Shown: piece after piece, positions 36,219 to 59,560 of the stretch
Position numbering within the stretch: position 1 is the first letter of the stretch
Layout of the letters: each line of letters opens with the position of its first letter
From: Naegleria gruberi
Lineage: Eukaryota
Assembly (NCBI GenBank): GCA_000004985.1
Contig: GG738855.1
Length of the DNA: 64,000 bases
Direction: 5' to 3' (one strand)
Made by a program: the position numbers and the translations under genes
Notes under the pieces: generated by a model
Told to the model about the DNA's origin: nothing
Database searches by the model: none
The model's input: the letters and a program-made list of their open reading frames with translations, nothing else

Positions 36219-39200
36219 TTACTTCTTTTTGGCTTTCTTTGACTTTCCAGTCTTCTTGGCATTCTTTCTCTTCTTTGATTTAGGTTCCTCTTCCTCTGGT
36301 TCTTCCTCAGAGTATTCTTCAATATCATCATGTTCTTCCTCAGAGCACTCTTCAATATCATCTTCGTCTATTTCTTTCTTTTGAGATTTTTGAGAGAAAA
36401 GAACTGGTGAGCTAGGGGTTGGTGAACGGTCTGTCTTCTTCTTTTTTGAGGTCTTCTTTTTCTTTGGGGAACCCTTCTTATTAGAGAGACCTTGTTTTAA
36501 ATTTCTCAATTCCTCATCAATATTTTCCAATTCACCCTGAATTTCTTCAATTTCGCTCTTGTGTTTTTCAATAGTTTCTTCCTTTTGCTGTTCAGTTTGG
36601 GCATATTCTCCCTTCTCGAAAGCAATTGTTTCTCTGAGTACTTTCTTATACTCTTCAACCTTCTTCTTCTTTTCTAGCAGTAGTTTGACTTCAGGATTTT
36701 CGCTGAGTGGAGTTTGACCAAAACGGAAAACTGGTGGACCTGTAGCCTTAGAACCAGCATATACGATACCAGTTGCTTCAATTCTCTCTCCATCAAGTGT
36801 TAGAATCAATGGGACTGCTAAATTAATTTCCAGTCTCTTTTTTCTGAATGCCAAACCAGTAAGGAATGTTTCAAAAACTAAACTACTACCTAATAAATTC
36901 CAAAATGCATGTCTAATCATTTCTCGTCTAATGTCTATTTCTATCAGATTTACAGAATAGCCAACAAATCCATCTGCGTCAATTGGATCCAATCTCAATC
37001 TACCTTCATTATCCATACCTTTTGAACATTTCTGGATATTATCGAGGGGTAAAACTGGTATCTTGTGAGGGAAATTTTCTAGGAGTCGTCTCACTTTTTC
37101 CATACCATTAGAATCTTGTACAACAATACATTGCATCTTATCTCCCAAGAACCTAGAAATTGTGTCATTGTGCTTTTCATTATCTATATAACCTAGCTCT
37201 CCAAGAATTCCCACAATTCCACTATCTGTTTCCTTTTGGAGTTGTTTTACTTTCTGCAAGGCCTTGTTTTCCGCAAGGCCAACATTGCACTCTTTTTGTT
37301 TTCTACTGTTCTGTGTCTTGATCTCTAACTTCTTTTTAAGAATATTCAATAGTTTGTCAGCATTTTCCATATTTGGCATATCATTTTCGAAGTTCAATTC
37401 ATATTCTTTGATTGTTTTCAGTATATCATTCATTGTGGATCTGAAATTACTAAGCTTGAATTCATTCTCTTGGTGATTTTGCTCGGCTTTCTTAATTTCC
37501 TTCTTCAGATAATCTAGTTCACTGAGACAATTTTGTTTCTTCTCTTGGAGTTCCTTCTCAATTTGTTGAATAGCACTGTTATCAGTAAATCCAAATTCTA
37601 ACTCTTTTGGTGGAAGATTTTTAGTTGTAAAAACTAGCTTATACAAACCAGTTTCACCTGATCCCTCCTTTATGCTAACTCTTGAAAACTTGGCACGACC
37701 ATTCTCAAATTTAGCTACTAAATCCCCTTCTAGCTCAGGAAGTTCACTGTCCATGCTATCTTCTGTTGGTTGAATGGAAAGAGTGACCTTTTTAATTTTA
37801 TCATCGGCAATCACAGTATTGGAATACTTGTCTATCACTTTGAGTGAAAGTTCTTCCCAGAATGATCTTGCATCAATATTTTCTCCCATATTGGTAACTA
37901 CAGGAAGCTGGAATTTATCATTTTCTATTTCCAAAGCTTCCGGATCTCCAGGGGAGACAGCAATATCTAGAGTAGTGTTTATACTCCCATTCAGTCCAAG
38001 AATTGGAACATATGGCAATGAAGAAATGTCCAAAGTAAATCTATATCTGTAAACTCCGGATTTAGTAAATTCTTTTTCACTATTTGCGAATGTATATGTT
38101 AAACTCTTGGAAGCAGATGGGCATGATATGAATTGCCTTTTATCTCCTCCTTGAGGGTTTGCTACTTCCATAATGATTGAATTTGGAGCCTTAACAGGTT
38201 TTCCACTTTCTCCCAAAACTACAACTTCAAAAGGGTCTAAAAAGTCTCCCACCACAAGATTTGTTGTCTTATTGGTAACCTTGAGTTCTGCTGGATGGGA
38301 GCTCTTGATAATATTTACAATAAAGCAAGTCTTGTTTGCCTTTGTTAACTCGTATTCAATCCAGAAAGTATGTCTTCCCTCTGTACCTTTAACCCAAAAT
38401 TGTGGCATATAGGCTCTTCCATTTTCAATTTGTAAATCGATGGACTGATTGACTTCTCCTTGATATTGGATAATTTCAATATCAGTCTCTGGAGGTTCAA
38501 TCTCAAAGTTTCCATGTTGATGTATTACGTTACCAAACTTATCGTGTGTTGTAATGTAAAATGATGGAGTAAGATTATAATTTTCAACATCGAATACTAC
38601 CTCTCCTATCATGTCATTAACTCTCAAAGACACTGGTGGTCCTGGTTCAAGGAGAATATTTTCAATTTTACCCTCTTTGATTTTACCTCCCTTGTCAATA
38701 ATCTTCAAATGGAATTCTCCAGAAGGGCCTATCAAGCTTACATCATTATATTTAAAAAATTTAAAGTGTTCATGGTCATCCAATCCTGTTAGGAGTCGTA
38801 GTTTGTCGAAATCACAAATTTCAATACTTTCTGCTTCACCATTCAATTGAGAAACTATTTCAATTGAAGGTTCAATATTCTCAAGTTCTGGATAATTTTC
38901 ATTACTCTCGTTATCCATCCTATTTCCAAATGCATCCATAATACTGAACTTAACACTGAACTTTTGTTCACATTTAAGTTTTTCAGGTATTGACTTTCTC
39001 TCTATTTTAAATATGCATGGAGGCCCTGTTATGACACGTAAATTAATGGTAAAGTTTGCTATTATCATATCTGTGTCAATATCATCATCGTTCTGTACGG
39101 AATCTCCTGCTGCTTTGGAGAGTATATCGACAAAATATTTAGTAGTTTTAAAAATTTGTGGAACTACTAGAGTTGGTAATTCGCAAATACCTTTTTTAAC

Positions 39201-42200
39201 TTCTAAAAGATTGGCTTTACACCATGAAGCTCTGGCGTATGCATCAATCTCTATCCTTTCGTACATTTCATTGCATAATTCCAAATTCCATCCAACTAGT
39301 TCTGAACTGACTATTGCATTCACTGTTACTTTAAGTGCAGATCTCTCCTTGATCATATTCTTTTCCTCAGTGGTTCTAGTTAGGAGGTTAAATGAAGAAG
39401 GTTTTGCAACTGAAGCTGATTCAATAGTAAGTGGAACATCAATGCAAATATCTTGGTAACTTAGTGTTATATATGCCTCTTTTCGTTGAGAACTACTTTG
39501 AGAGCTTCCTATAGCTATATTTTTGAATTGGAAATAACCAGTTTCAGTATTAAAGGTACCAGAAGCTTCTTCTTTCAAACATTCTCCTTTTACGGTTATG
39601 GTGAGAGGGGTAAAGTCATCTTCACCATCATAAAAACATGGAATGTAGATTTGATTATTTTTCTCATCCAGTAATTTGGCCTCAATATCTGGTAGAATTT
39701 TCTTTACAGAGTTTCCTGACAAGGCAGTAGCTGCATCTTCAGAAAGTTGAATAGTGTGAACGGCTCCAGCAAATATCACCATATCAATTTCAAGAGGTTG
39801 CATAATTAGACCAAATGCTATCACTAATTTTGTTTTTACAAACTTGTTGGAACCTAATGGAGCACTTTTAACAACAAGCTCAGTAATTTCTATTTGATTG
39901 CTATTGTTGAAGGAGGCCTTAAATGAGGATAGTTCTACGGTATCATCAGTTGTTGTAATTTTAAGTTCTTCCGTAATGTTACAAGTTGTCTCTTTGAAAG
40001 GAACAACATTACCATACGTGTCTTGTTGTTCAATGATTAGTGTGGGGAATGGTTTGTCAATAAAGGTTAAAAGGGAATCCTTGAGTTGACTCTTATCTAA
40101 AAGAGATTTGGCACCTTTAACTTTTGGTAAATTGTTGGAAAGTGACAGAGTGGATGGCGCCGCAGCAGTTACATCAATTTTTACCACCTTTGCTTTGATT
40201 CCACTGTCCTCAGAAGAGGATAATTCCAAAATATAAGTACCCACAGATGTAAATTCTGGCTTCAGCTTGTAAGGCTTGAAGCAATGCACTCCTTTTTTAA
40301 AAGCCTTTGTTGAAGTGAGTGACTCATTAAGTTTTTGTTCTTCTTCATTATCACCTTCATAGGTTATGGTCAAAGTAACTGGGTAGAGTTGGTTTGTCAC
40401 AACCTTGTGATCTCCTGTCATTATACAAGCCGACAGGTATTTGAGAGAATATCCAGCTGTAACAGCGTCAGGTGGTGGTCTTCTCTCTCTTGCAGTAACA
40501 TTTGGTGTATCTACAACATCTATATAGCTCGGTAGCTTATTTTTCATTTTGCTGACTTCAGCTTTAAACTCTTGCTTGGTGAGAAGGTTTTGTACTTTTG
40601 ATATTGGAAAGCACTGTCCATTCTTTGAATCATCTGACTCCTTTTCAGGTGACCATTCCTTAACTACAATAGTTACAGAGTATTCTTCTGATGACATGTC
40701 CCTAAACATATCAACAAGAGTTCCAATAATTTTAGGTCTAGTTTTCATGACTAGATAATCTCCAATGGAATAATTTGTTTGTCCGTATTTGATCTTTTTG
40801 TAGAATGTTTTCATACCCTTTCCTTCTTTTTGAGTTCTTTCGAAATCACATTCGTCAAAAATTATTTCTTCATCTAATTTTTTGTGGCATTCCTTAATCC
40901 ATTTTCTATACCTCTGTGTCAAGTTTCTTTCGCTGTAATTTAAAAGTGCTTGACAGAGTGCTGTTTGTTTGCAAAGGTACATTTTGTTGGCCGATACTTC
41001 AAAATTAGAATCAAAAAAGAGCATTCCCTTAATTCTTCTATAGCAATTTTCTGGAATATCCCTATTACTTCTTTCCTTCTCCATAAAAGGTAAATTTTTG
41101 ATTTTTTCATTAGCTAACAGTCTACCATTCCAAAAGCATTCAAATCCAGGATTTCTTTCGCTCAGAGGTACTTCTTGGTCAGTAGGAATATATTTTCCTC
41201 CTTCCAAATATAATTCTTCTGGTATTGGAAGAGTTTCTCTTCCTTGTTTGAAAGGATAGTAATAAATTATTCCTCTCACTGTGCTATTAATTATCGACAC
41301 TCCATATTGGGATGATGTTGGCAGGGTCATTTCAGGCGCGTTCAAATTTTCTCCATTTTTGACACTGAGTTTGATTTCAAAAGTGAACGGTGACTTTCCC
41401 TCCTGAAGATATAATGTTTCCATGTCCTTGTCTTCATTCGATATGGCTGTGCCATCTACTTTCATTATGACATTTTTAGGTTGCTTTAATTGCCATAAAT
41501 CGTCTTCATCAATTGAGGGCATCTTTGTTTTCTTTTGAGACTTGATTGGTGGCATTTCTTCCTCCTCTCCTTCGGAAAGATCATCAATATCACTCATGTT
41601 ATCATTTTCATCAGGATCTTCAATAATATCTCTTCCTTCCTTATTACCATCAGTTCCATGTATATAATAGTGATAGATGTGGCCTAAACGCTTCTTGATA
41701 ATTGCTGGATCATATCTATCGACATAGACCTTCTTAATGTCCGAAATTGTAAAGTGAGTAAAGCTTTCCCATTGTTTTTCTGTATCAGTTGGAGGTCTAG
41801 AAATACAATTGGCTTTCCATTGTTTGTCTTTTCCTGAAGTAAAATCTTGCTCCAACTTTTGCCTTGAAAGGGAAACTTCATAAACAAATCTTGAATCTTT
41901 TGGTTTTGAGACAAGAGTGACTTCATCTCCCAAGTTGAAAATGGCCTTCTTGGAACCTACACCATACCTGGAAAAGTCTGACGTAACAAATTTATCAAAA
42001 AACCTTCTGCGGAGTGGTGCCTTTTCTCTTGTTGGCAACTTGGAATCATCAACTGGGGCTTCAGTAATACCAAGAGTAGCCCAATTGACTAAGGTTTTAA
42101 AATTCATTCCTCTTCCATTATCCCAAATATGGAGCTTGCTTGTAAGTTCATTACTCTGTGTAGGCTTTTCAAATCGAATTTCGATAAGCCTTTCATTCTT

Positions 42201-43037
42201 GTTGAGGACAGTGTTTTGAATAGAATTGTCCAAAATTTCAGCAAGAGCGGTAATGAAGTCATATTCATCTCCTCCGTGAATTAAAATATTTACATGAGGT
42301 ACAATATCTACAGTCAATTGTAAATTAGCCTTAACTTTAGAAGATGATTCAGAAGTATTTTGGCCATTTTTCAATGTCAATATAAAACACCCATGACTCG
42401 AAGTGGGTGGTAAGTTTCTTGTCGAATGAGCACTTTGATTAATGTCGTCTAATATGATAACTTCGTTGGTGTTTGCCTTAGATTTTCCAATTTGAGATGC
42501 ATCTAAATCGGCATCCTTTACATCCTTATCATCCAAATTTCTAATAGATTCAATTTCATTCACAGATTTTAATTTAAAAATCTCACAAATGTAATGTTTC
42601 AATTGATTCACACTTGAAATTTTAGATTTAGGCCCAACAAGTTTTGTTTTTCCAGTGTGGGCATCCACAATCTTGTACATTGTTGGATCTGAATTTTCTT
42701 CGATTTTTGCAGTTGTCTCATCGTTTAATTTGGTTTTTTTTCTTGATGGTTCTATTTCTTTCTTAATTTTAGTTTCTGTCACTGTTGGTGGTTGACTTGC
42801 AAGTTTTGTTGGTTGTGATGATGATTTTGTTGTTTCTTCCGATTCCGATATTTCTTCATATTCGTCAATAATATTACTATCATCTTGGTCTTCCAAATAT
42901 TTACTACTGTTATTGGAGGTACTCTTGTAACCATTTTCCTCATCGTTCTCTGAGGAGGTTCTCTTTTTAGATTTCTTTGCCGTTGTTGATGAAGAATTTT
43001 TGCTGTTCGTCTTTTTGCTTGATGACTTTGGAGGCAT
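36219..43037 (-). CDS. SMCHD1-like giant protein (2272 aa from ATG): N-terminal GHKL/MORC-type ATPase and C-terminal SMC hinge domain, with an acidic/basic low-complexity tail
   Basis: GHKL N-box and G1 box (LAEILDNSIQNTV … LHIWDNGRGMNFKTL). The C-terminal SMC hinge consensus GIVGILGELGYIDNEKHNDTISRFLGDKMQCIVVQDSNGMEKVRRLL…LTLDGERIEATGIVYAGS is preceded by a coiled coil. Single uninterrupted ORF; ATG at 43037 (MPPKSSSKK). Confidence 0.75.
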   Translation of the reverse strand: MPPKSSSKKTNSKNSSSTTAKKSKKRTSSENDEENGYKSTSNNSSKYLEDQDDSNIIDEYEEISESEETTKSSSQPTKLASQPPTVTETKIKKEIEPSRKKTKLNDETTAKIEENSDPTMYKIVDAHTGKTKLVGPKSKISSVNQLKHYICEIFKLKSVNEIESIRNLDDKDVKDADLDASQIGKSKANTNEVIILDDINQSAHSTRNLPPTSSHGCFILTLKNGQNTSESSSKVKANLQLTVDIVPHVNILIHGGDEYDFITALAEILDNSIQNTVLNKNERLIEIRFEKPTQSNELTSKLHIWDNGRGMNFKTLVNWATLGITEAPVDDSKLPTREKAPLRRRFFDKFVTSDFSRYGVGSKKAIFNLGDEVTLVSKPKDSRFVYEVSLSRQKLEQDFTSGKDKQWKANCISRPPTDTEKQWESFTHFTISDIKKVYVDRYDPAIIKKRLGHIYHYYIHGTDGNKEGRDIIEDPDENDNMSDIDDLSEGEEEEMPPIKSQKKTKMPSIDEDDLWQLKQPKNVIMKVDGTAISNEDKDMETLYLQEGKSPFTFEIKLSVKNGENLNAPEMTLPTSSQYGVSIINSTVRGIIYYYPFKQGRETLPIPEELYLEGGKYIPTDQEVPLSERNPGFECFWNGRLLANEKIKNLPFMEKERSNRDIPENCYRRIKGMLFFDSNFEVSANKMYLCKQTALCQALLNYSERNLTQRYRKWIKECHKKLDEEIIFDECDFERTQKEGKGMKTFYKKIKYGQTNYSIGDYLVMKTRPKIIGTLVDMFRDMSSEEYSVTIVVKEWSPEKESDDSKNGQCFPISKVQNLLTKQEFKAEVSKMKNKLPSYIDVVDTPNVTARERRPPPDAVTAGYSLKYLSACIMTGDHKVVTNQLYPVTLTITYEGDNEEEQKLNESLTSTKAFKKGVHCFKPYKLKPEFTSVGTYILELSSSEDSGIKAKVVKIDVTAAAPSTLSLSNNLPKVKGAKSLLDKSQLKDSLLTFIDKPFPTLIIEQQDTYGNVVPFKETTCNITEELKITTTDDTVELSSFKASFNNSNQIEITELVVKSAPLGSNKFVKTKLVIAFGLIMQPLEIDMVIFAGAVHTIQLSEDAATALSGNSVKKILPDIEAKLLDEKNNQIYIPCFYDGEDDFTPLTITVKGECLKEEASGTFNTETGYFQFKNIAIGSSQSSSQRKEAYITLSYQDICIDVPLTIESASVAKPSSFNLLTRTTEEKNMIKERSALKVTVNAIVSSELVGWNLELCNEMYERIEIDAYARASWCKANLLEVKKGICELPTLVVPQIFKTTKYFVDILSKAAGDSVQNDDDIDTDMIIANFTINLRVITGPPCIFKIERKSIPEKLKCEQKFSVKFSIMDAFGNRMDNESNENYPELENIEPSIEIVSQLNGEAESIEICDFDKLRLLTGLDDHEHFKFFKYNDVSLIGPSGEFHLKIIDKGGKIKEGKIENILLEPGPPVSLRVNDMIGEVVFDVENYNLTPSFYITTHDKFGNVIHQHGNFEIEPPETDIEIIQYQGEVNQSIDLQIENGRAYMPQFWVKGTEGRHTFWIEYELTKANKTCFIVNIIKSSHPAELKVTNKTTNLVVGDFLDPFEVVVLGESGKPVKAPNSIIMEVANPQGGDKRQFISCPSASKSLTYTFANSEKEFTKSGVYRYRFTLDISSLPYVPILGLNGSINTTLDIAVSPGDPEALEIENDKFQLPVVTNMGENIDARSFWEELSLKVIDKYSNTVIADDKIKKVTLSIQPTEDSMDSELPELEGDLVAKFENGRAKFSRVSIKEGSGETGLYKLVFTTKNLPPKELEFGFTDNSAIQQIEKELQEKKQNCLSELDYLKKEIKKAEQNHQENEFKLSNFRSTMNDILKTIKEYELNFENDMPNMENADKLLNILKKKLEIKTQNSRKQKECNVGLAENKALQKVKQLQKETDSGIVGILGELGYIDNEKHNDTISRFLGDKMQCIVVQDSNGMEKVRRLLENFPHKIPVLPLDNIQKCSKGMDNEGRLRLDPIDADGFVGYSVNLIEIDIRREMIRHAFWNLLGSSLVFETFLTGLAFRKKRLEINLAVPLILTLDGERIEATGIVYAGSKATGPPVFRFGQTPLSENPEVKLLLEKKKKVEEYKKVLRETIAFEKGEYAQTEQQKEETIEKHKSEIEEIQGELENIDEELRNLKQGLSNKKGSPKKKKTSKKKKTDRSPTPSSPVLFSQKSQKKEIDEDDIEECSEEEHDDIEEYSEEEPEEEEPKSKKRKNAKKTGKSKKAKKK

Positions 43038-43142
43038 TTTATTCTTGTGTTTGTTGGAATACCAACGAGAAATATTTTGGCGCCAAATCTTTAAAGATAA
43101 AAATACAGATCTCGTAACTAATGCCATGTTATTGGAAACACC

Positions 43143-43928
43143 TTATTCATGTCTTGGTGGTTTTTCCACCACTTTGATTTTTGTAATTTGAATATGATCT
43201 TCCAATGGATAAATATTTTCACATTTGGTTCTAATTTCTGCACCCATTCCACATTTGATTGCCATTTGCTCAACAAATTCCAGAATGTTCATCTTACTAA
43301 TATGTTTGGTTAATACTTGAGCCATGACAGTCCTAATCTTATGAATTTGCGACTTACTGGCATAGGATGTCTTTTTCAATTGCAATTCTGTCATTCTCGT
43401 GCTCACAATCATGGCTATTCTAATCTTGTAACCATCCAAACTCTTAAATTCCTGATTAAGAGTTATGGTTGAGCGACCTTTTCCTATCAATGATGCCAAT
43501 TTATCTTGACTCAATCTAAAACCATTAAACTCTGTTTCTGCATGTTTTCGAAGAGCAACATTATTGATCTTCAATTTTACAATATTATGATTCAATTCTT
43601 CCTTCAAAGATGGAATAATATCAGGAGCTGAAACTTCCACTGTTCGATCAAGAATTTTTTCAAACGTTGGAGTTTGATCCACTTTTTTCTTCACTTTTTT
43701 CTTCAATTTTTTCTGCAAGGCGATAGTGTGTTCTGATTTTGTAATGGGTGTCATTAAAGGAGGATAATCTCCCTCAGTATTGGTGACAGTAGCATATTCA
43801 TTGGTATCTGATTTTTCATAGCTCAGGTATGGTGATTCTATTAGAAAGAATTCTTTTCTATCTTGAAAATATTTTGGCAGACGGTACCTTCTTGGTAACA
43901 TACGTTTGTTCCTTCCGAGTCCTCCCAT
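43143..43928 (-). CDS. Highly divergent ribosomal protein eS1 (S3Ae/RPS3A) family member (262 aa)
   Basis: Collinear, weak but patterned similarity to eS1: MGGLGRNKRM N-terminus (compare MAVGKNKRL), LDGYKIRIAMIVST (compare TDGYLLRLFCVGFT), KTSYASKSQIHKIRTVM (compare KTSYAQHQQVRQIRKKM), ENIYPLED (compare QSIYPLHD). Same length as eS1 (~260 aa). Confidence 0.5.
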   Translation of the reverse strand: MGGLGRNKRMLPRRYRLPKYFQDRKEFFLIESPYLSYEKSDTNEYATVTNTEGDYPPLMTPITKSEHTIALQKKLKKKVKKKVDQTPTFEKILDRTVEVSAPDIIPSLKEELNHNIVKLKINNVALRKHAETEFNGFRLSQDKLASLIGKGRSTITLNQEFKSLDGYKIRIAMIVSTRMTELQLKKTSYASKSQIHKIRTVMAQVLTKHISKMNILEFVEQMAIKCGMGAEIRTKCENIYPLEDHIQITKIKVVEKPPRHE

Positions 43929-44154
43929 TTTTTTGCATGAAATTGAAATATTTATTGAAAATGGATTGATGGCTATTGTTAGTAATTTCACAATTCTGAG
44001 ATTGAAATTCCAAAAAATCTACAAGATTTATTACAAAAAAATGAAATTATAACAATTTTAGCAGGTGATGTGAATAATATGTAATTATTAGTTAATTGTT
44101 TAAATTATTTAATTTTTAAATAATTGGGATTTTTGAATTTTTATTTAAAAAAAA

Positions 44155-45399
44155 ATGATTGAAAACGTTCATTCTCTCGGTTGGCTACTCAAACACAACA
44201 CTCCATTACTGAGTAAAATTTTACTATTTTGCGACTGCAAGACAGTGCTCCACTCAATTCCGTACGTTTGTAAGAGTTGGGCCAATTTAATGTATAATTG
44301 TTTTCCATCGGTTGTGGATTCAATGCACTTGGATTCCGTAGTGGAAAATTCCATCATGATGATGATGACGGATGAAAGTCTTAGTGCCAGTAATCATCAC
44401 CATCAAAAGAATTCTACTACTGATGATGACGATGAAGAAATTAAAAACATTTGGGAACTCCTCTTCTATAGAGATTGTACAACTTGTAGAGGAAAACAGA
44501 ATAGTTTTTGTTCCTTGTTGGAGAAAATTGAATTTAATCAAGTTTTTATTCCCGATGATTATGCTGATGGACATAGGGAGAGGAAGTGTTTTGAAAATTT
44601 GTATAAACACTTGATGAGGGATTGGGTTCTCGAGAATGCCATTAAGCCAAACGATGCACTCAGATCAGTAGCTGCCAATTATTCGGAAATTATTTCAATG
44701 AAGGATAGAGTTTCTCTCTTCCGAGAATTTATTGCAGAACAAGAGGAATATGCAACATTGGATAAACATCTCAAAATTAATGAAGGAGACATTGAAAATC
44801 TCACAAGGGATCTATCTCTTATAGAAGATACTTTTAAATTTACCAAGTTTGTCCAATGTATTGAAGTTGAGGATGAAGACGAGACCATTGTAGAGGATGT
44901 TATTGAGAGGAGGAGTATGCAAGTTGAAGGAAGCTTTTTAAACTGGAATGGAGATATTGTACACATGACTTTCGTATTGGATTTTCCATATAGTGAATTT
45001 AATCCAGAGGCAGATGTGGACATGGATGTATTTTTCAATCTTGGTGACATGATATCATTGGCAGCAGGAGAAGTTAATTTACCAGATTTAAATGTAATTC
45101 TAGGAAAGGACATTGGAGCTGCCTATCCATGGATTTTGGACACTAGTGGTTGTAAAGTTGAGAGCGAGGAAGACATGTTGCATGTCTTGTTGAATAACTA
45201 TTTAATTACCATTCTAATTGGCGCCATTTCAATGCAAGTCATACCAATTAAGGAGTATAATGATTTAACATTTTCAAGAACTGATGACTTGCTATACTTT
45301 TTAAAGTTTGGCACAATAGACATTATGAGTGATTGTATACCTGAAGTGAAACCTCAAGTTGGCACTAATGATTTGATGGATGATTCCTTGAATGATTAG
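44155..45399 (+). CDS. F-box-like domain protein (hypothetical)
   Basis: N-terminal LLSKILLFCDCKTVLHSIPYVCKSWANLM resembles an F-box. 414 aa. Confidence 0.45.
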   Translation: MIENVHSLGWLLKHNTPLLSKILLFCDCKTVLHSIPYVCKSWANLMYNCFPSVVDSMHLDSVVENSIMMMMTDESLSASNHHHQKNSTTDDDDEEIKNIWELLFYRDCTTCRGKQNSFCSLLEKIEFNQVFIPDDYADGHRERKCFENLYKHLMRDWVLENAIKPNDALRSVAANYSEIISMKDRVSLFREFIAEQEEYATLDKHLKINEGDIENLTRDLSLIEDTFKFTKFVQCIEVEDEDETIVEDVIERRSMQVEGSFLNWNGDIVHMTFVLDFPYSEFNPEADVDMDVFFNLGDMISLAAGEVNLPDLNVILGKDIGAAYPWILDTSGCKVESEEDMLHVLLNNYLITILIGAISMQVIPIKEYNDLTFSRTDDLLYFLKFGTIDIMSDCIPEVKPQVGTNDLMDDSLND

Positions 45400-51928: not shown

Positions 51929-54289
51929 TTAAAGGAAGAATGGGTTATTACGAAGTTTTGTTGATGGGTATTCTTGTGTCAAGTCAACTGATTCAATTGA
52001 TTTTTTGGCGTAGAGTAAACATGCTGGCATTCTTACAGAACCATTCCAATTATAGTAGAGATGTGTTTGTCTGAAAGTAATTTTGATAATCTCATCAACT
52101 GAGAACATGGTATTGTTGAACAAAACTTGGTATCTGACTGGTTTGCTGTATCCAATATTACTATTAATAAAGCACGAGTTCATGTAAAATTCTTGAGTTT
52201 GGTATCTTGACATACTGGTAACAACAGTACCAATTGGTGGATTCTGATTATCCATATTAAATCTGGCATTAGAGTCCTTGTTTACACTAACCAGGCAAAC
52301 TTTGGTATATTCCATTTCAGCTTCAAGACAAAAGTCATGAATAAGTTGAGAAATATCAATACAATCATGTCCACTATTGTACAAAATCAAAGCACTAGGC
52401 ATTCCTCCACTGTTTCTATTACGAAAAGCTTGCAAGGCCTCCTTAATACTTGACAATAACTTGTTACGAATGTTTGTTTCATCACTCTCTCTGAAGGGAA
52501 CTGTATAATACAGAGTAGTACTAGTATTTAGTGAGAGTGAAATGGAGCCTTTAAAGTTTCTTCCCTTTCTCTGAATATCAATACCACAAACTGATACAAA
52601 CTCTTGATAGGATCTTTCGACAGACCAAATAAGACCACCAATCTTGGCTGACATTTGTATCAAACAATTAGGAAGTCTCTTAAACCAATCTCCATTACAA
52701 ACAATACATTGTGAAGGAATACCAACAGTACAATTGTAAAACTGTTTCAATGCACTGTAAATATGCTTATTTTCATTAGCCATGAGGAAAAAGACATAGT
52801 CCAGGTCATTCCAATTTTTGTAACCTTCAATATCATGCATAAAATCTCTACCACGATCATCCAAATCAAATACAAGAGGCTTTCCCAAATCGTACCTTCT
52901 AATGGCATCCATAAATCCTTTAACAAGGAATTGTGGTGATACAAGCGCCCAATTTTTTCCTTGCAAACTGTTAATGACAGTATCCATAGAAACAGTCCAT
53001 TTGTCATTTTTCATGCCTTCAATTCCAGAGACTTGTGGTTGTGGAACAACAGTAAAGCTAGTTTCAAGTGCTCTGTCGATTTGCAATCCAACCGAATCAA
53101 GGAATTGTCTTGACTCTCCACTATTCATTTTGTTAGAAATTCTGGTTATGTAGTCTTCCTTTTGTGTAACTGATTTCTTTGGAATTTTCCTCAAATCCTT
53201 CTTGTTAATACCAGAAATGTAACAAAGTTCTGGAATCAGATAGTTAACTTGTTTTTTCTGATTTCTCATCTTGACCATAACACAAATCAAAGGCTGATTC
53301 TTATCTCTAACATTGATATTGTATCTTTCCTTATAGTATTCAAAGTAAGGAACATCTTTTCCATCTTTTTTAAAGGTCGATGAAGGTGTTTGGTTGAAAT
53401 CAATATCCTTAATGACAAATGATCTATTATTGTAGACGATACTGAGACCCTTATATCTTTCTGCTATGGATAAATAGTTATCTCTTTGCATATCATTCTT
53501 CAAATCTTCAATCATGGAATATCTGCTAGTGATCTTTTGTTTGAATGTTAAGGAGAGACACAAACCACTTCCAAGGAAGGCTAAAGCAGGAATAACACCA
53601 TCTCTCACAGAGTATCTATCAACGATAGCGCCTTCTTTTTCAACTTCAGCAAATCCCAATCTATCCATCTTTAAGTATTTAAAAACCTTGGTCAGACAAA
53701 ATGAAATAGCCTGTTCTAATCTAGTATCTTGAATATTATTGTTAATGGAAACTTCAGTCTTTCCTTCAATTTTCACTAAGAATGGAATCTTGACACCATT
53801 CTTTTCGTATGGCATAACAATTTCTAAGGATGGAACCTTCTCAACAGAAACAATTAATGAGCCATCAAACATTGGCAATCCAGGAATTTGTGAGGTCCAA
53901 TTATAAGTCTTTTTTATCATGAAAAACAACTTGAATTTGAATGGAACTATATTCAACATGGATTCAGCCCATCTCTTACTTTCTTCTGGAATTTCAGCCC
54001 ATTCGGTTGTTTTGGATGCACAAGTCACAGAAAATGATGATAATTCGAAAATTCTATTCGGAAGCATTCTGATTGGAAAGAAGTTTGTTTTAATTCTATC
54101 GGATGATGTTCTTTGCCCTCCGTGGCCTCCTTGATAGCCTCCTCCACGACCACCAAAGCCTCCATGTCCTCCTTGATAACCTCCTCCACGGTGGTGACCA
54201 CCACCCTGGTGATGTGATGGTCTTCCAGAGTTGTCCTCCTTGAAACGTTTGTTATAGTCTTGATTTCCTTCGAAGCCTCTCTTGCTCAT
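51929..54289 (-). CDS. Argonaute/PIWI-family protein with an N-terminal RGG/GGH-repeat region
   Basis: RGG box (GGGHHRGGGYQGGHGGFGGRGGGYQGG). PAZ-like YLIPELCYISG. PIWI motifs (VCGIDIQRKG; ALILYNSGHD; SVRMPACLLYAKKS, compare SIPAPAYYAHLVA). ATG at 54289; the track start is TTG. Confidence 0.85.
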   Translation of the reverse strand: MSKRGFEGNQDYNKRFKEDNSGRPSHHQGGGHHRGGGYQGGHGGFGGRGGGYQGGHGGQRTSSDRIKTNFFPIRMLPNRIFELSSFSVTCASKTTEWAEIPEESKRWAESMLNIVPFKFKLFFMIKKTYNWTSQIPGLPMFDGSLIVSVEKVPSLEIVMPYEKNGVKIPFLVKIEGKTEVSINNNIQDTRLEQAISFCLTKVFKYLKMDRLGFAEVEKEGAIVDRYSVRDGVIPALAFLGSGLCLSLTFKQKITSRYSMIEDLKNDMQRDNYLSIAERYKGLSIVYNNRSFVIKDIDFNQTPSSTFKKDGKDVPYFEYYKERYNINVRDKNQPLICVMVKMRNQKKQVNYLIPELCYISGINKKDLRKIPKKSVTQKEDYITRISNKMNSGESRQFLDSVGLQIDRALETSFTVVPQPQVSGIEGMKNDKWTVSMDTVINSLQGKNWALVSPQFLVKGFMDAIRRYDLGKPLVFDLDDRGRDFMHDIEGYKNWNDLDYVFFLMANENKHIYSALKQFYNCTVGIPSQCIVCNGDWFKRLPNCLIQMSAKIGGLIWSVERSYQEFVSVCGIDIQRKGRNFKGSISLSLNTSTTLYYTVPFRESDETNIRNKLLSSIKEALQAFRNRNSGGMPSALILYNSGHDCIDISQLIHDFCLEAEMEYTKVCLVSVNKDSNARFNMDNQNPPIGTVVTSMSRYQTQEFYMNSCFINSNIGYSKPVRYQVLFNNTMFSVDEIIKITFRQTHLYYNWNGSVRMPACLLYAKKSIESVDLTQEYPSTKLRNNPFFL

Positions 54290-54789
54290 TTCGTGTGTGG
54301 CTTTGTGATTTGTGTTGGTCGAAGGAAAAACTGGCAATATGTTGTTTGCTTATTTTTTTGATTAACTGAAGAGAAATTGAATGATTGAAAAAGGCTGGAA
54401 AGTTTGTTCAAAATATTTGTTTCTAAACAAAAGGCTTCTTGTTCAAAGTCAAGAAATTATGTTTAACTCAAATCTCAAACATGATACATCAGCTGGAGTA
54501 CAGTTTATAGTGATTAATTAAAGCTGGCATTTAGTGAGGTATCTCAACAATTATTCATTATTGTAAAGAAAGCTAAAAACATAAAAGTATCTCCCATTGA
54601 TGATGGGTTACAATTACCTTGTTGTTAAAAGTTCAGATCTTCCAAACACTTTCAAAGTATTCTTTCAGATGAATGATTCTTCCAACATGAGCACAACCCA
54701 TTAAATAAGTTGAGAGAATTCATGAGACCTTCATGATTTTATCTTTCTGGGTTCAATTCACAACATGGGAGAATTATTTTGCTTTTATC

Positions 54790-54905
54790 AACTACGGCCA
54801 TATCACGATGAATGCATCTCATCCCGTCCGATTTGAGAAGCATCGTCGAGCCACATCAGTACTGAGGTTGGAGACAACTTGGGAACCTGTGGTGCTGTAG
54901 TCTTT
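54790..54905 (+). rRNA. 5S ribosomal RNA gene
   Basis: Matches universal 5S elements (ACGGCCATATCAC, GAATGCATCTCATCCCGTCCGATTTGAGAAG loop C, AGTACTGAGGTTGGAGAC, TTGGGAACC, GGTGCTGTAG). Ends pair as helix I (AACTACGGC / GCTGTAGT). Followed by a T6 Pol III terminator (TCTTTGTTTTTT). Ends are approximate to a few nt. Confidence 0.85.
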
Positions 54906-54987: not shown

Positions 54988-55060
54988 CTCCCCCTGGTGG
55001 GCTCGAACCACCGACCTGCAGATTAACAGTCTGACGCTCTACCGACTGAGCTAAGGGGGA
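54988..55060 (-). tRNA. tRNA-Asn (anticodon GTT)
   Basis: Reverse complement gives TCCCCCTTAGCTCAGTCGGTAGAGCGTCAGACTGTTAATCTGCAGGTCGGTGGTTCGAGCCCACCAGGGGGAG. It has a 7-bp acceptor stem, D-arm GCTCAGTCGGTAGAGC, anticodon loop CTGTTAA, T-arm GGTGGTTCGAGCCCACC, and a T6 terminator 4 nt downstream on the minus strand. Confidence 0.9.
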
Positions 55061-58291: not shown

Positions 58292-59560
58292 TTAAACAAA
58301 GTTTTGGAAGACTTGGGATCTACGAGCAATAGATGGACCCATTTCATCATATTGAGCCTTGGTATAACAGACTCTCTTGAATTCGTTCATAGTACCCAAC
58401 ATGGAACCACCAAACCAAACAGCAAAACGTTGGTGATTGTGAGCAATAACGTTACATTCCAAAGGACTTGGCTTTGGCTTACCACTTGAAGTCATGGAAA
58501 CAGCTCTTTCATAACGTTCATCCAATTTCTTCTTCATGTCACGTTGTAAACGTCTATCAAAGTGTTCAAACATTGTTGAACCACCAGAAAGGACAATATT
58601 CTTGTACAAAGCTCTACGAGCATCAATTGGTGATGAGAGAATACATTGATCAACAACGTCTGGGAGTGGAGTGCTGAAAGTTTCAGTGAAAATTTCTGGA
58701 TTGAAAAAGACTTCTGGAGCCAAGAATCTTTCATAGGCAACATCAATTTCCCATTTACCAGATCTCTTATTTTCTTGAGAGTACTTGAGAATATTTTCTG
58801 CTGGATTTTGGTCAAATTTACCAAATTCCTTTGCCAAATCGGAACAGACATAACAATACTTTTCCTTGATCTTTTGGACAGCCAATTTGATATCTTCAGA
58901 TGGCATATTCTTTTCACGATCCATAACGAAACGCATCAAGAATTCAGTGACATCTCTACCAGCCAATGGGATGTGTTTAATACTAGAACCAATGACATAA
59001 CCTTCAACAACAGGAATGACGTGAGTAACACCATCACCAGAGTCAATAACAGTACCAGACAATGTACCACCCAAACCAAGCTTTTTAGATTTGGATGATG
59101 TCCAAGAAGCACACAAAGCCAAAACAGCTTGGACAGCAATGTACAAACCAGAAACGTTGAATGTTTCGAACATAATTTCAGCTGTTTGTTCACGATTTTC
59201 TGGTGGATTGAGTGGAGGTTCAGTCAACATCAAGTAGTGATCCTCAGGTTCACATTTCAAATAGTTAAAGAAGCATTGTTCCCACAACATTTCCATCTTG
59301 CTCCAATCTTCAATAAGACCGTGTCTCATTGGATATACCAAATCATAGTTTCCACCAGTTTTTTCTTGTGCTTCATAACCAATGTAGAAATCGAGATCTT
59401 CCAAACCCTTTTCTGCTGATTTTGGATTGTGTGAAATACAGGTTGGAATGATATAGTTTGGTTCACTGTTACCAGCATAACCCATCTTGGTAAAACCAGT
59501 ACCATTGTCAATAACAAGGACTGGATTGTTTCTAGCAATAACGTCGTTGGAATAACTCAT
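58292..59560 (-). CDS. ARP3: Actin-related protein 3 (Arp2/3 complex subunit)
   Basis: End-to-end Arp3 similarity: VIDNGTGFTKMGYAGNSEPNYIIPTCI, EPEDHYLMLTEPPLNPPENREQTAEIMFETFNVSGLYIAVQAVLAL, VIDSGDGVTHVIPVVEGYVIGSSIKHIPLAGRD, IVLSGGSTMF, AVWFGGSML. 422 aa, single exon. Confidence 0.95.
   Translation of the reverse strand: MSYSNDVIARNNPVLVIDNGTGFTKMGYAGNSEPNYIIPTCISHNPKSAEKGLEDLDFYIGYEAQEKTGGNYDLVYPMRHGLIEDWSKMEMLWEQCFFNYLKCEPEDHYLMLTEPPLNPPENREQTAEIMFETFNVSGLYIAVQAVLALCASWTSSKSKKLGLGGTLSGTVIDSGDGVTHVIPVVEGYVIGSSIKHIPLAGRDVTEFLMRFVMDREKNMPSEDIKLAVQKIKEKYCYVCSDLAKEFGKFDQNPAENILKYSQENKRSGKWEIDVAYERFLAPEVFFNPEIFTETFSTPLPDVVDQCILSSPIDARRALYKNIVLSGGSTMFEHFDRRLQRDMKKKLDERYERAVSMTSSGKPKPSPLECNVIAHNHQRFAVWFGGSMLGTMNEFKRVCYTKAQYDEMGPSIARRSQVFQNFV

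Follow-up and report, generated by a model that had tools for sequence, protein, structure and literature searches.

A divergent group of eS1-like ribosomal protein paralogs in Naegleria gruberi

As a rule, ribosomal proteins evolve under constraint, and their paralogs remain similar to the parent protein. Divergent paralogs that keep the fold at about 25–35% identity are known from Rlp24/eL24, Rlp7/uL30, Mrt4/uL10 and Imp3/uS4, and stage- or tissue-specific paralogs, such as Drosophila RpS5b and RpL22-like and mammalian RPL3L and RPL10L, have been connected with proposed heterogeneous ribosomes. We know of no eS1-like assembly factor and of no divergent eS1 paralog family, and literature searches found no such family for Naegleria; a preprint on expansions of N. 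gruberi complexes does not name eS1. Here we analyse a stretch of 64,000 nucleotides from Naegleria gruberi (GenBank assembly GCA_000004985.1, contig GG738855.1; the window in the following), which carries a gene for a divergent protein of the S3Ae/eS1 family (RPS3A; Rps1 in yeast). The gene belongs to a group of N. gruberi paralogs that is clearly separated from canonical eS1. Although the gene models and the automatic Pfam match are already public, it is new to recognise in them an eS1 subfamily that is confined to one lineage, remodelled, kept by selection and present beside the canonical gene. With somewhat less than even confidence, we favour the reading that the gene encodes a maintained divergent eS1 paralog that may serve as an alternative, conditionally used 40S protein at the eS1 site.

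The eS1-like gene and its protein

The open reading frame (ORF) occupies positions 43143-43928 on the minus strand, with its ATG at 43928 and its TAA at 43145-43143, and is uninterrupted. Its 786 nt make up 261 codons and the stop, so the protein has 261 amino acid residues (aa) and not the 262 given in the original prediction. It exactly matches the N. gruberi protein NAEGRDRAFT_64820 (XP_002680131.1; UniProt D2V7I9), which is publicly annotated as 'predicted protein' only and lies on a scaffold of 613 kb. The protein starts with MGGLGRNKRM, and every motif quoted for it earlier is found in the translation, namely GRNKRM (aa 5-10), DGYKIRIAMIVST (aa 165-177), KTSYA...IRTVM (aa 186-202) and IYPLED (aa 239-244). 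N-myristoylation of MGGLGR was considered and ruled out by the known consensus, given the Arg at position 5 after Gly; the N-terminus also varies among the paralogs. The gene and the parts of its protein are as follows.

43143..43928, minus strand: complete single-exon coding sequence (CDS) of the eS1-like protein (ORF and translation, exact match to the N. gruberi protein, Pfam S3Ae)
43824..43928, minus strand: N-terminal basic extension, aa 1-35 (MGGLGRNKRM...RKEFFLIESPY), collinear with canonical MxxGKNKR...DPFxKKEWYDVKAP
43662..43823, minus strand: expanded paralog-specific segment, aa 36-89, poorly modelled (alignment with 24 canonical eS1 proteins, model confidence)
43158..43661, minus strand: S3Ae/eS1 globular domain, aa 90-257, with the best-conserved core LQLKKTSYASKSQIHKIRTVM (Pfam, model confidence, Foldseek)
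43143..43157, minus strand: last four residues PRHE and stop (alignment of paralogs and canonical proteins)

Membership in the S3Ae/eS1 family, as first proposed from the letters, is borne out by a match of 107.7 bits to the Pfam profile PF01015 (Ribosomal_S3Ae; E=7e-31, aa 90-257 against profile positions 38-191 of 191), far above the curated cutoff of 29.3 bits. A phmmer search against the PDB sequences returned only eS1/S3a chains, the best of them from Plasmodium (E=1.2e-22) and further ones being microsporidian, kinetoplastid and Euglena eS1. The AlphaFold2 model of the protein has a mean predicted local distance difference test score (pLDDT) of 76.7 and a predicted template modelling score (pTM) of 0.70; the pLDDT is mostly >90 for aa 90-257, low for aa 1-23, and <50 for aa 37-76 and 79-82. 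When the model was compared with the PDB by Foldseek, the top 50 matches were all ribosome or pre-ribosome entries (40S, 80S, archaeal 30S and small-subunit (SSU) processome structures; E ~1e-17), among which the chains checked by sequence with phmmer are eS1, and the superposition gave a root-mean-square deviation of ~2 Å across ~170 residues. As modelled, the eS1 globular fold is kept in this protein.

The architecture was compared in an alignment of the N. gruberi paralogs with 24 canonical eS1 proteins, where collinearity extends from the N-terminal GxNKR motif through the last strand. The earlier claim of collinearity along the whole length therefore stands for this range; it does not extend to the canonical C-terminal helix and tail, which are absent, and the N-terminal part is not significant alone, since an N-terminal stretch of the S. 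pombe protein scores -2.0 bits in phmmer. The N-terminal collinearity is nevertheless consistent across the paralogs, being degenerate in the window protein (GRNKR, RKEFFLIESPY) and clearer in the paralog P0003, where MVVGKSK...IDPF...VKSPYF stands against canonical MVVGKNKR...IDPF..KKDWYDVKAPS. The segment of aa 36-89 is ~20-45 residues longer than its canonical counterpart and includes the K-rich stretch KKLKKKVKKKV, and the extra columns that follow 'SPY' in four paralogs are gaps in 24/24 canonical sequences. At the other end, the PKxDxxKLxELH helix and the acidic tail of canonical eS1 are absent from every full-length paralog: canonical eS1 runs 20-60 residues past the paralog ends KPPRHE (window protein), RPPREEK and KPQL, and the paralog P0005 terminates at the same point with KPVFRK. 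Replacements also affect several hallmark residues: KKEW has lost its W and LKGR its G, most of KKW is changed, and VSTR stands in place of GFTK. The three full-length paralogs scored all retain 30 of the 60 columns that are >=85% conserved in canonical eS1; a further 14 are retained by some of them, and the remaining 16 have been lost throughout. Retention is best in the block Q.KKTSYA..SQI.KIR..M. The paralogs are basic (isoelectric point (pI) 9.75-9.8, net charge +18 to +25), and canonical eS1 has a pI of 9.6-10.1.

The identity between the window protein and canonical eS1 is 26-32% across the full alignment and 27-37% (mean 33%) in the globular domain, so that the first estimate of about a quarter was roughly right and slightly low. 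Pairwise identity among canonical eS1 proteins is 37-95%, with a mean of 52%; they thus appear only moderately conserved in this set, and not among the most conserved ribosomal proteins as had been assumed.

Paralogs, canonical eS1 and origin of the group

As found by protein database searches, the group comprises five N. gruberi gene models in four 90%-identity clusters.

NAEGRDRAFT_64820: window gene, 261 aa
NAEGRDRAFT_76025: P0005, 256 aa
NAEGRDRAFT_76343: P0002, 220 aa, near-identical to P0005, with an aberrant C-terminus
NAEGRDRAFT_64949: P0003, 248 aa
NAEGRDRAFT_72207: P0007, 255 aa

The genes are dispersed on different scaffolds, and the paralogs are 49-69% identical to the window protein (49-67% by BLASTP, 53-69% by MAFFT). 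The scaffolds of P0002 and P0005 are small and separate (18 kb and 99 kb), and P0002 leaves the family pattern after residue ~205 (KISQMK) and ends early with SLNLLTNGYQM; it may be a haplotig, a faulty gene model or a decaying copy or allele. Near-identical copies of two paralogs, P0004 and P0006, occur in the ENA metagenome ERZ929261 on two short contigs, L001 (1-1603) and L002 (552-1301), respectively. Contig L001 is 99.4% identical to positions 42376-43976 of the window across 1603 bp and has the same neighbouring gene, and compared with the N. gruberi copies P0004 differs by 2 changes and P0006 by ~5 changes including a one-residue insertion. This metagenome holds an N. gruberi-like environmental strain with the same two eS1-like paralogs.

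By the Nei-Gojobori method, the window gene and the paralog on L002 differ with a nonsynonymous rate (dN) of 0.39 and a synonymous rate (dS) of ~1.8, which is near saturation, giving a dN/dS of ~0.21 (0.22 within the domain). Four full-length ORFs among the copies are intact, only P0002 being aberrant, and the paralogs are most conserved in the blocks that are also conserved in canonical eS1. Judged from these sequence comparisons, the paralogs are under purifying selection. The copies could instead be non-functional or decaying duplicates, for example retrocopies drifting to pseudogenes, in line with which the genes are single-exon and dispersed, P0002 is C-terminally aberrant and truncated, and the CDS of the window gene differs from that of the environmental strain by two nonsynonymous changes and one synonymous change. 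However, three coding differences are too few for this last comparison to inform on selection, and the dN/dS, the four full-length ORFs that stayed intact despite such a high dS and the blocks shared with canonical eS1 argue against pseudogenes, so that we consider decay quite improbable.

A canonical eS1 of Naegleria is available as the row 'Naegleria0' of the S3a alignment in supplementary file 43 of PMC7203096, an ordinary eS1 with 170 masked columns. Each of the ribosomal-protein files there holds exactly one Naegleria row, and many of these are labelled Naegleria_gruberi@NAEGR... (PMC7203096), which suggests that 'Naegleria0' is N. gruberi as well. This canonical copy is thus known from a trimmed alignment row and not from a genome locus; word-index protein searches with the window protein, a profile of the four paralogs and the canonical-type protein P0008 returned no canonical Naegleria eS1, with an index that is imperfect. 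Text searches of literature and supplements for a Naegleria S3a annotation were likewise negative, and the sequence was found in the alignment file. The expectation of a canonical eS1 elsewhere in the genome is accordingly supported as far as the Naegleria row goes, its assignment to N. gruberi being indirect. A further protein from ENA, P0012, was dropped as a candidate for an N. gruberi-like canonical copy, as its contig comes from sample ERZ27053372 instead of ERZ929261 and its N-terminal residues point to a source rich in GC. The 'Naegleria0' protein is 49-59% identical to other eukaryotic eS1 proteins and ~30-37% identical to the window protein (30% by BLASTP, 50/168 alignment columns with 33 gaps), and it is distinct from each of the five divergent models.

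This bears on the view that the window gene is simply a fast-evolving housekeeping eS1 ortholog. Full-length collinearity, the intact ORF and the kept basic charge would suit such an ortholog, but a canonical-type eS1 exists in Naegleria that is unlike all five models, and four mutually divergent copies form a separate clade on a long branch. Since a normal eS1 is present, we discard the window gene as the sole, fast-evolving eS1, and the housekeeping explanation is hardly credible. The original prediction that the gene is a paralog and not the housekeeping copy is thereby supported: the four clusters form one clade with 100% bootstrap, far from canonical eS1, and a distinct canonical Naegleria eS1 exists.

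The tree was built by neighbour-joining from 34 taxa mapped onto the masked columns, with 300 bootstraps. All of the bootstraps (100%) recover the four paralogs as a monophyletic group, which sits on a long separate branch, the canonical Naegleria eS1 groups with an environmental clade (P0183, P0185, P0189, P0190 and P0194), and the paralogs join Naegleria eS1 and this clade in 51% of the replicates. The possibility of a lineage-specific duplicate, raised earlier, agrees with a clade of N. gruberi sequences only, and the tie of this clade to the Naegleria eS1 is weak. We also looked for rare residues, defined as being present in the Naegleria eS1 and in at least three of the four paralogs and in no more than 2 of the 24 canonical sequences that lie outside the environmental clade. 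Nine columns were found, including the N in FNG (FH or FYG in others; 0/24), the A in SAxD (0/24) and the I in KIKV (2/24), and the R in G.R, the T in LIT, the K in Y..KSQ and others, which occur in the environmental clade as well.

The canonical Naegleria eS1 has its nearest relatives in the environmental clade (53-59% identity), which is for this reason probably heterolobosean. Together with the Naegleria eS1 this clade (P0183, P0008, P0189, P0190 and P0194) has, like the paralogs, the R in F.G.R, the T in LIT, the H in KWH, the K at masked position 134 and a non-R residue before K[VI]KV. Unlike the paralogs, to which they are ~35% identical, its proteins are ordinary eS1 with normal N-termini and a short C-terminal helix. 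The members P0183, P0008, P0184-P0190 and P0194 (contigs L040 and L041) are characterised by KTPINKTAGT, by RRQLQLKKT.YA and, before KVKVLK, by a residue other than Arg; their short tail ends in KELYGL. One member lies on the gene-dense 61.8-kb contig L041, and P0188 (assembly GCA_037189345.1) lies on a contig of 43.5% GC, unlike N. gruberi.

Apart from the near-identical copies in ERZ929261, no member of the group was found outside N. gruberi among ~15 billion proteins, JGI metagenomes and viral contigs. In an exhaustive HMMER scan of the paralog profile against 1.84 billion representatives, only two clusters scored below 1e-30, both from N. gruberi, and the score then dropped from 294 to 99.5 bits, where ordinary eS1 starts; the targets were 50%-identity representatives, so that members >=50% identical to a representative are hidden. 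A DNA-level scan of the JGI metagenomes gave only canonical-like genes with <=41% identity, and the viral contigs of IMG/VR contained no relative of the group. The word-index search with the single window protein missed P0007 (52% identical, with many common 5-mers), which was found by both the exhaustive scan and the four-sequence profile, and the negatives of the word index are for this reason weak evidence. The group is probably absent from other Naegleria species as well, within the limits set by the hidden members and the imperfect word index.

Horizontal acquisition from a virus or another eukaryote would be compatible with the long stem branch, the lack of known close relatives and the weakly supported neighbour-joining placement. 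Against it, IMG/VR holds no viral relative and the 1.84 billion representatives no closer donor, the rare residues in common with the Naegleria eS1 favour vertical origin, and GC content and codon usage match those of the neighbouring genes. The window has a GC content of ~35% throughout, and the codon usage of the eS1-like gene (effective number of codons (ENC) 43, GC content at third codon positions 0.30) is indistinguishable from that of its neighbours. We regard acquisition from outside as very improbable and infer that the group descends from a duplicated eS1 of its own lineage.

Function and genomic surroundings

The course of events that we propose is that an eS1 of the Naegleria lineage was duplicated, diverged rapidly and was then held by purifying selection. 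The protein would most likely still bind 18S rRNA at the eS1 site, on the platform of the 40S subunit near the mRNA exit; this is the most economical assumption, given that purifying selection has preserved the fold, the charge and the conserved core. It could serve as an alternative subunit protein that is used under certain conditions, such as stress or the cyst and flagellate stages. On particles that contain the paralog, the part of the surface formed by the C-terminal helix and tail of canonical eS1 would be different; with this helix and tail gone and a new N-terminal insertion present, the surface of the platform and mRNA exit is expected to be altered. A more specific version is doubtful: canonical eS1 would be exchanged for one of four divergent variants without the tail, giving stage- or stress-specific ribosomes with altered contacts to initiation factors or mRNA.

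Several points weigh against the favoured reading. The identity of 33% is far below that of known ribosome-incorporated paralogs and is more typical of ribosomal-protein-like assembly factors. The 16 of 60 conserved columns that were lost in all three paralogs include the KKEW tryptophan, the LKGR glycine and most of KKW, and the missing C-terminal helix could block stable incorporation into ribosomes. As the codon usage matches that of neighbouring genes, there is no sign of very high, housekeeping-type expression, as judged against these neighbours and not against a high-expression reference set of N. gruberi. The agreement in fold is partly built in, because the input alignment of AlphaFold2 contained canonical eS1. 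On the side of origin, the sister link to the Naegleria eS1 is weak (bootstrap 51% and 17%), and the count of rare residues, although highest for the Naegleria eS1 (eight), is tied with two other sequences, so that this signal is suggestive and not decisive. Finally, the gene identifiers of the paralogs are absent from the literature and supplements searched.

Some of these points would suit a neofunctionalised eS1-fold protein outside mature ribosomes, such as a placeholder or assembly factor of the pre-40S particle, an extraribosomal RNA-binding protein or a competitor for the site. By analogy with known factors, the ~33% identity to canonical eS1 falls in the range of ribosomal-protein-like assembly factors, the lost C-terminal helix and tail together with the remodelled N-terminal extension would fit a placeholder, and the background-level codon usage also counts for a non-ribosomal role. 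Moreover, eS1 is already present in SSU-processome structures (Foldseek matches 7mq8 and 9n73), so an early binding site exists. However, known placeholder factors are ancient and pan-eukaryotic, whereas this group was found only in N. gruberi, and an assembly factor would not usually occur in four to five copies that differ this much from one another. We therefore consider a role outside the mature ribosome possible, though on the unlikely side, and keep the alternative 40S protein as the preferred reading.

The window is compact, and the region upstream of the gene, which also serves a divergently oriented gene starting at 44155, is short.

43929..44154, no strand assigned: AT-rich intergenic region, 226 bp, presumed promoter and 5' leader (sequence and ORF map)

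A sigma-70 promoter and terminator scan is not applicable to this eukaryote. On the minus strand of this region there is an intron-like signal of ~62 nt at 43973-44034, with GTAATA followed by TACTAAC (43984-43978) and AG (43974-43973), which could be an intron in the 5' untranslated region. Immediately downstream of the eS1-like gene lies a single ORF for an SMCHD1-like protein of 2302 aa (36219-43127, minus strand), with a GHKL ATPase domain (HATPase_c_3), SMCHD1_S5 and an SMC-hinge, here in a heterolobosean. Its first in-frame ATG is 15 nt past the stop of the eS1-like gene, and a later ATG (~43037, MPPKSSS), ~105 nt downstream, corresponds to the start called on contig L001. Other genes in the window encode TBCC and a HAD-hydrolase. 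Positions 51929-54337 (minus strand) encode an 802-aa member of the Argonaute/Piwi family that has PAZ and Piwi domains, and a chromosomal 5S rRNA gene (54790-54903, plus strand, 79.7 bits) adjoins a gene for tRNA-Asn(GUU) (54988-55060, minus strand) in a gap flanked by the Argonaute gene and a gene with DUF4116 repeats. An actin-family protein of 422 aa (58292-59560, minus strand; 287 bits to Pfam Actin) is encoded by a gene whose codon bias is by far stronger than that of any other ORF in the window, its ENC being 31.9 where the other ORFs have 36-49.

Comparison with known systems

One free-living amoeba thus keeps four to five eS1 copies at about a third identity beside a normal eS1. In comparison with canonical eS1/RPS3A (yeast Rps1), the paralogs have the same PF01015 profile, fold, order of segments and pI of ~9.8, and the motifs Q.KKTSYA..SQI.KIR..M, DGY..R and IYP. 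They differ in that the domain identity is 27-37%, the N-terminal segment is expanded, and the PKxDxxKLxELH helix and acidic tail are missing; unlike canonical eS1, they are multi-copy, occur in one species only and coexist with a normal eS1.

Like Rlp24, Rlp7, Mrt4 and Imp3, the group represents divergent ribosomal-protein paralogs that keep the fold and could fill the same rRNA site. Those factors, however, are ancient, eukaryote-wide and usually single-copy, whereas the eS1-like group is lineage-restricted and multi-copy. If the paralogs stay outside ribosomes, a ribosomal fold would have been recruited to an RNA-binding or assembly role within a single lineage.

If the paralogs do enter ribosomes, they would constitute a natural and recent experiment in heterogeneity on the side of the 40S subunit that faces the mRNA exit and initiation factors, that is, a species-restricted specialisation of the ribosome by way of a core protein that has been radically rebuilt, in an organism whose life cycle of amoeba, flagellate and cyst is tractable. 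The value of the finding would rise substantially with ribosome incorporation or stage-specific use. The stage-specific paralogs of Drosophila and mammals resemble the group as extra copies beside a housekeeping gene, the assignment of the canonical copy to N. gruberi being indirect here. They are, however, far closer to their canonical proteins and have the same architecture, whereas the eS1-like group stands at ~33% identity and combines an insertion with a deleted tail.

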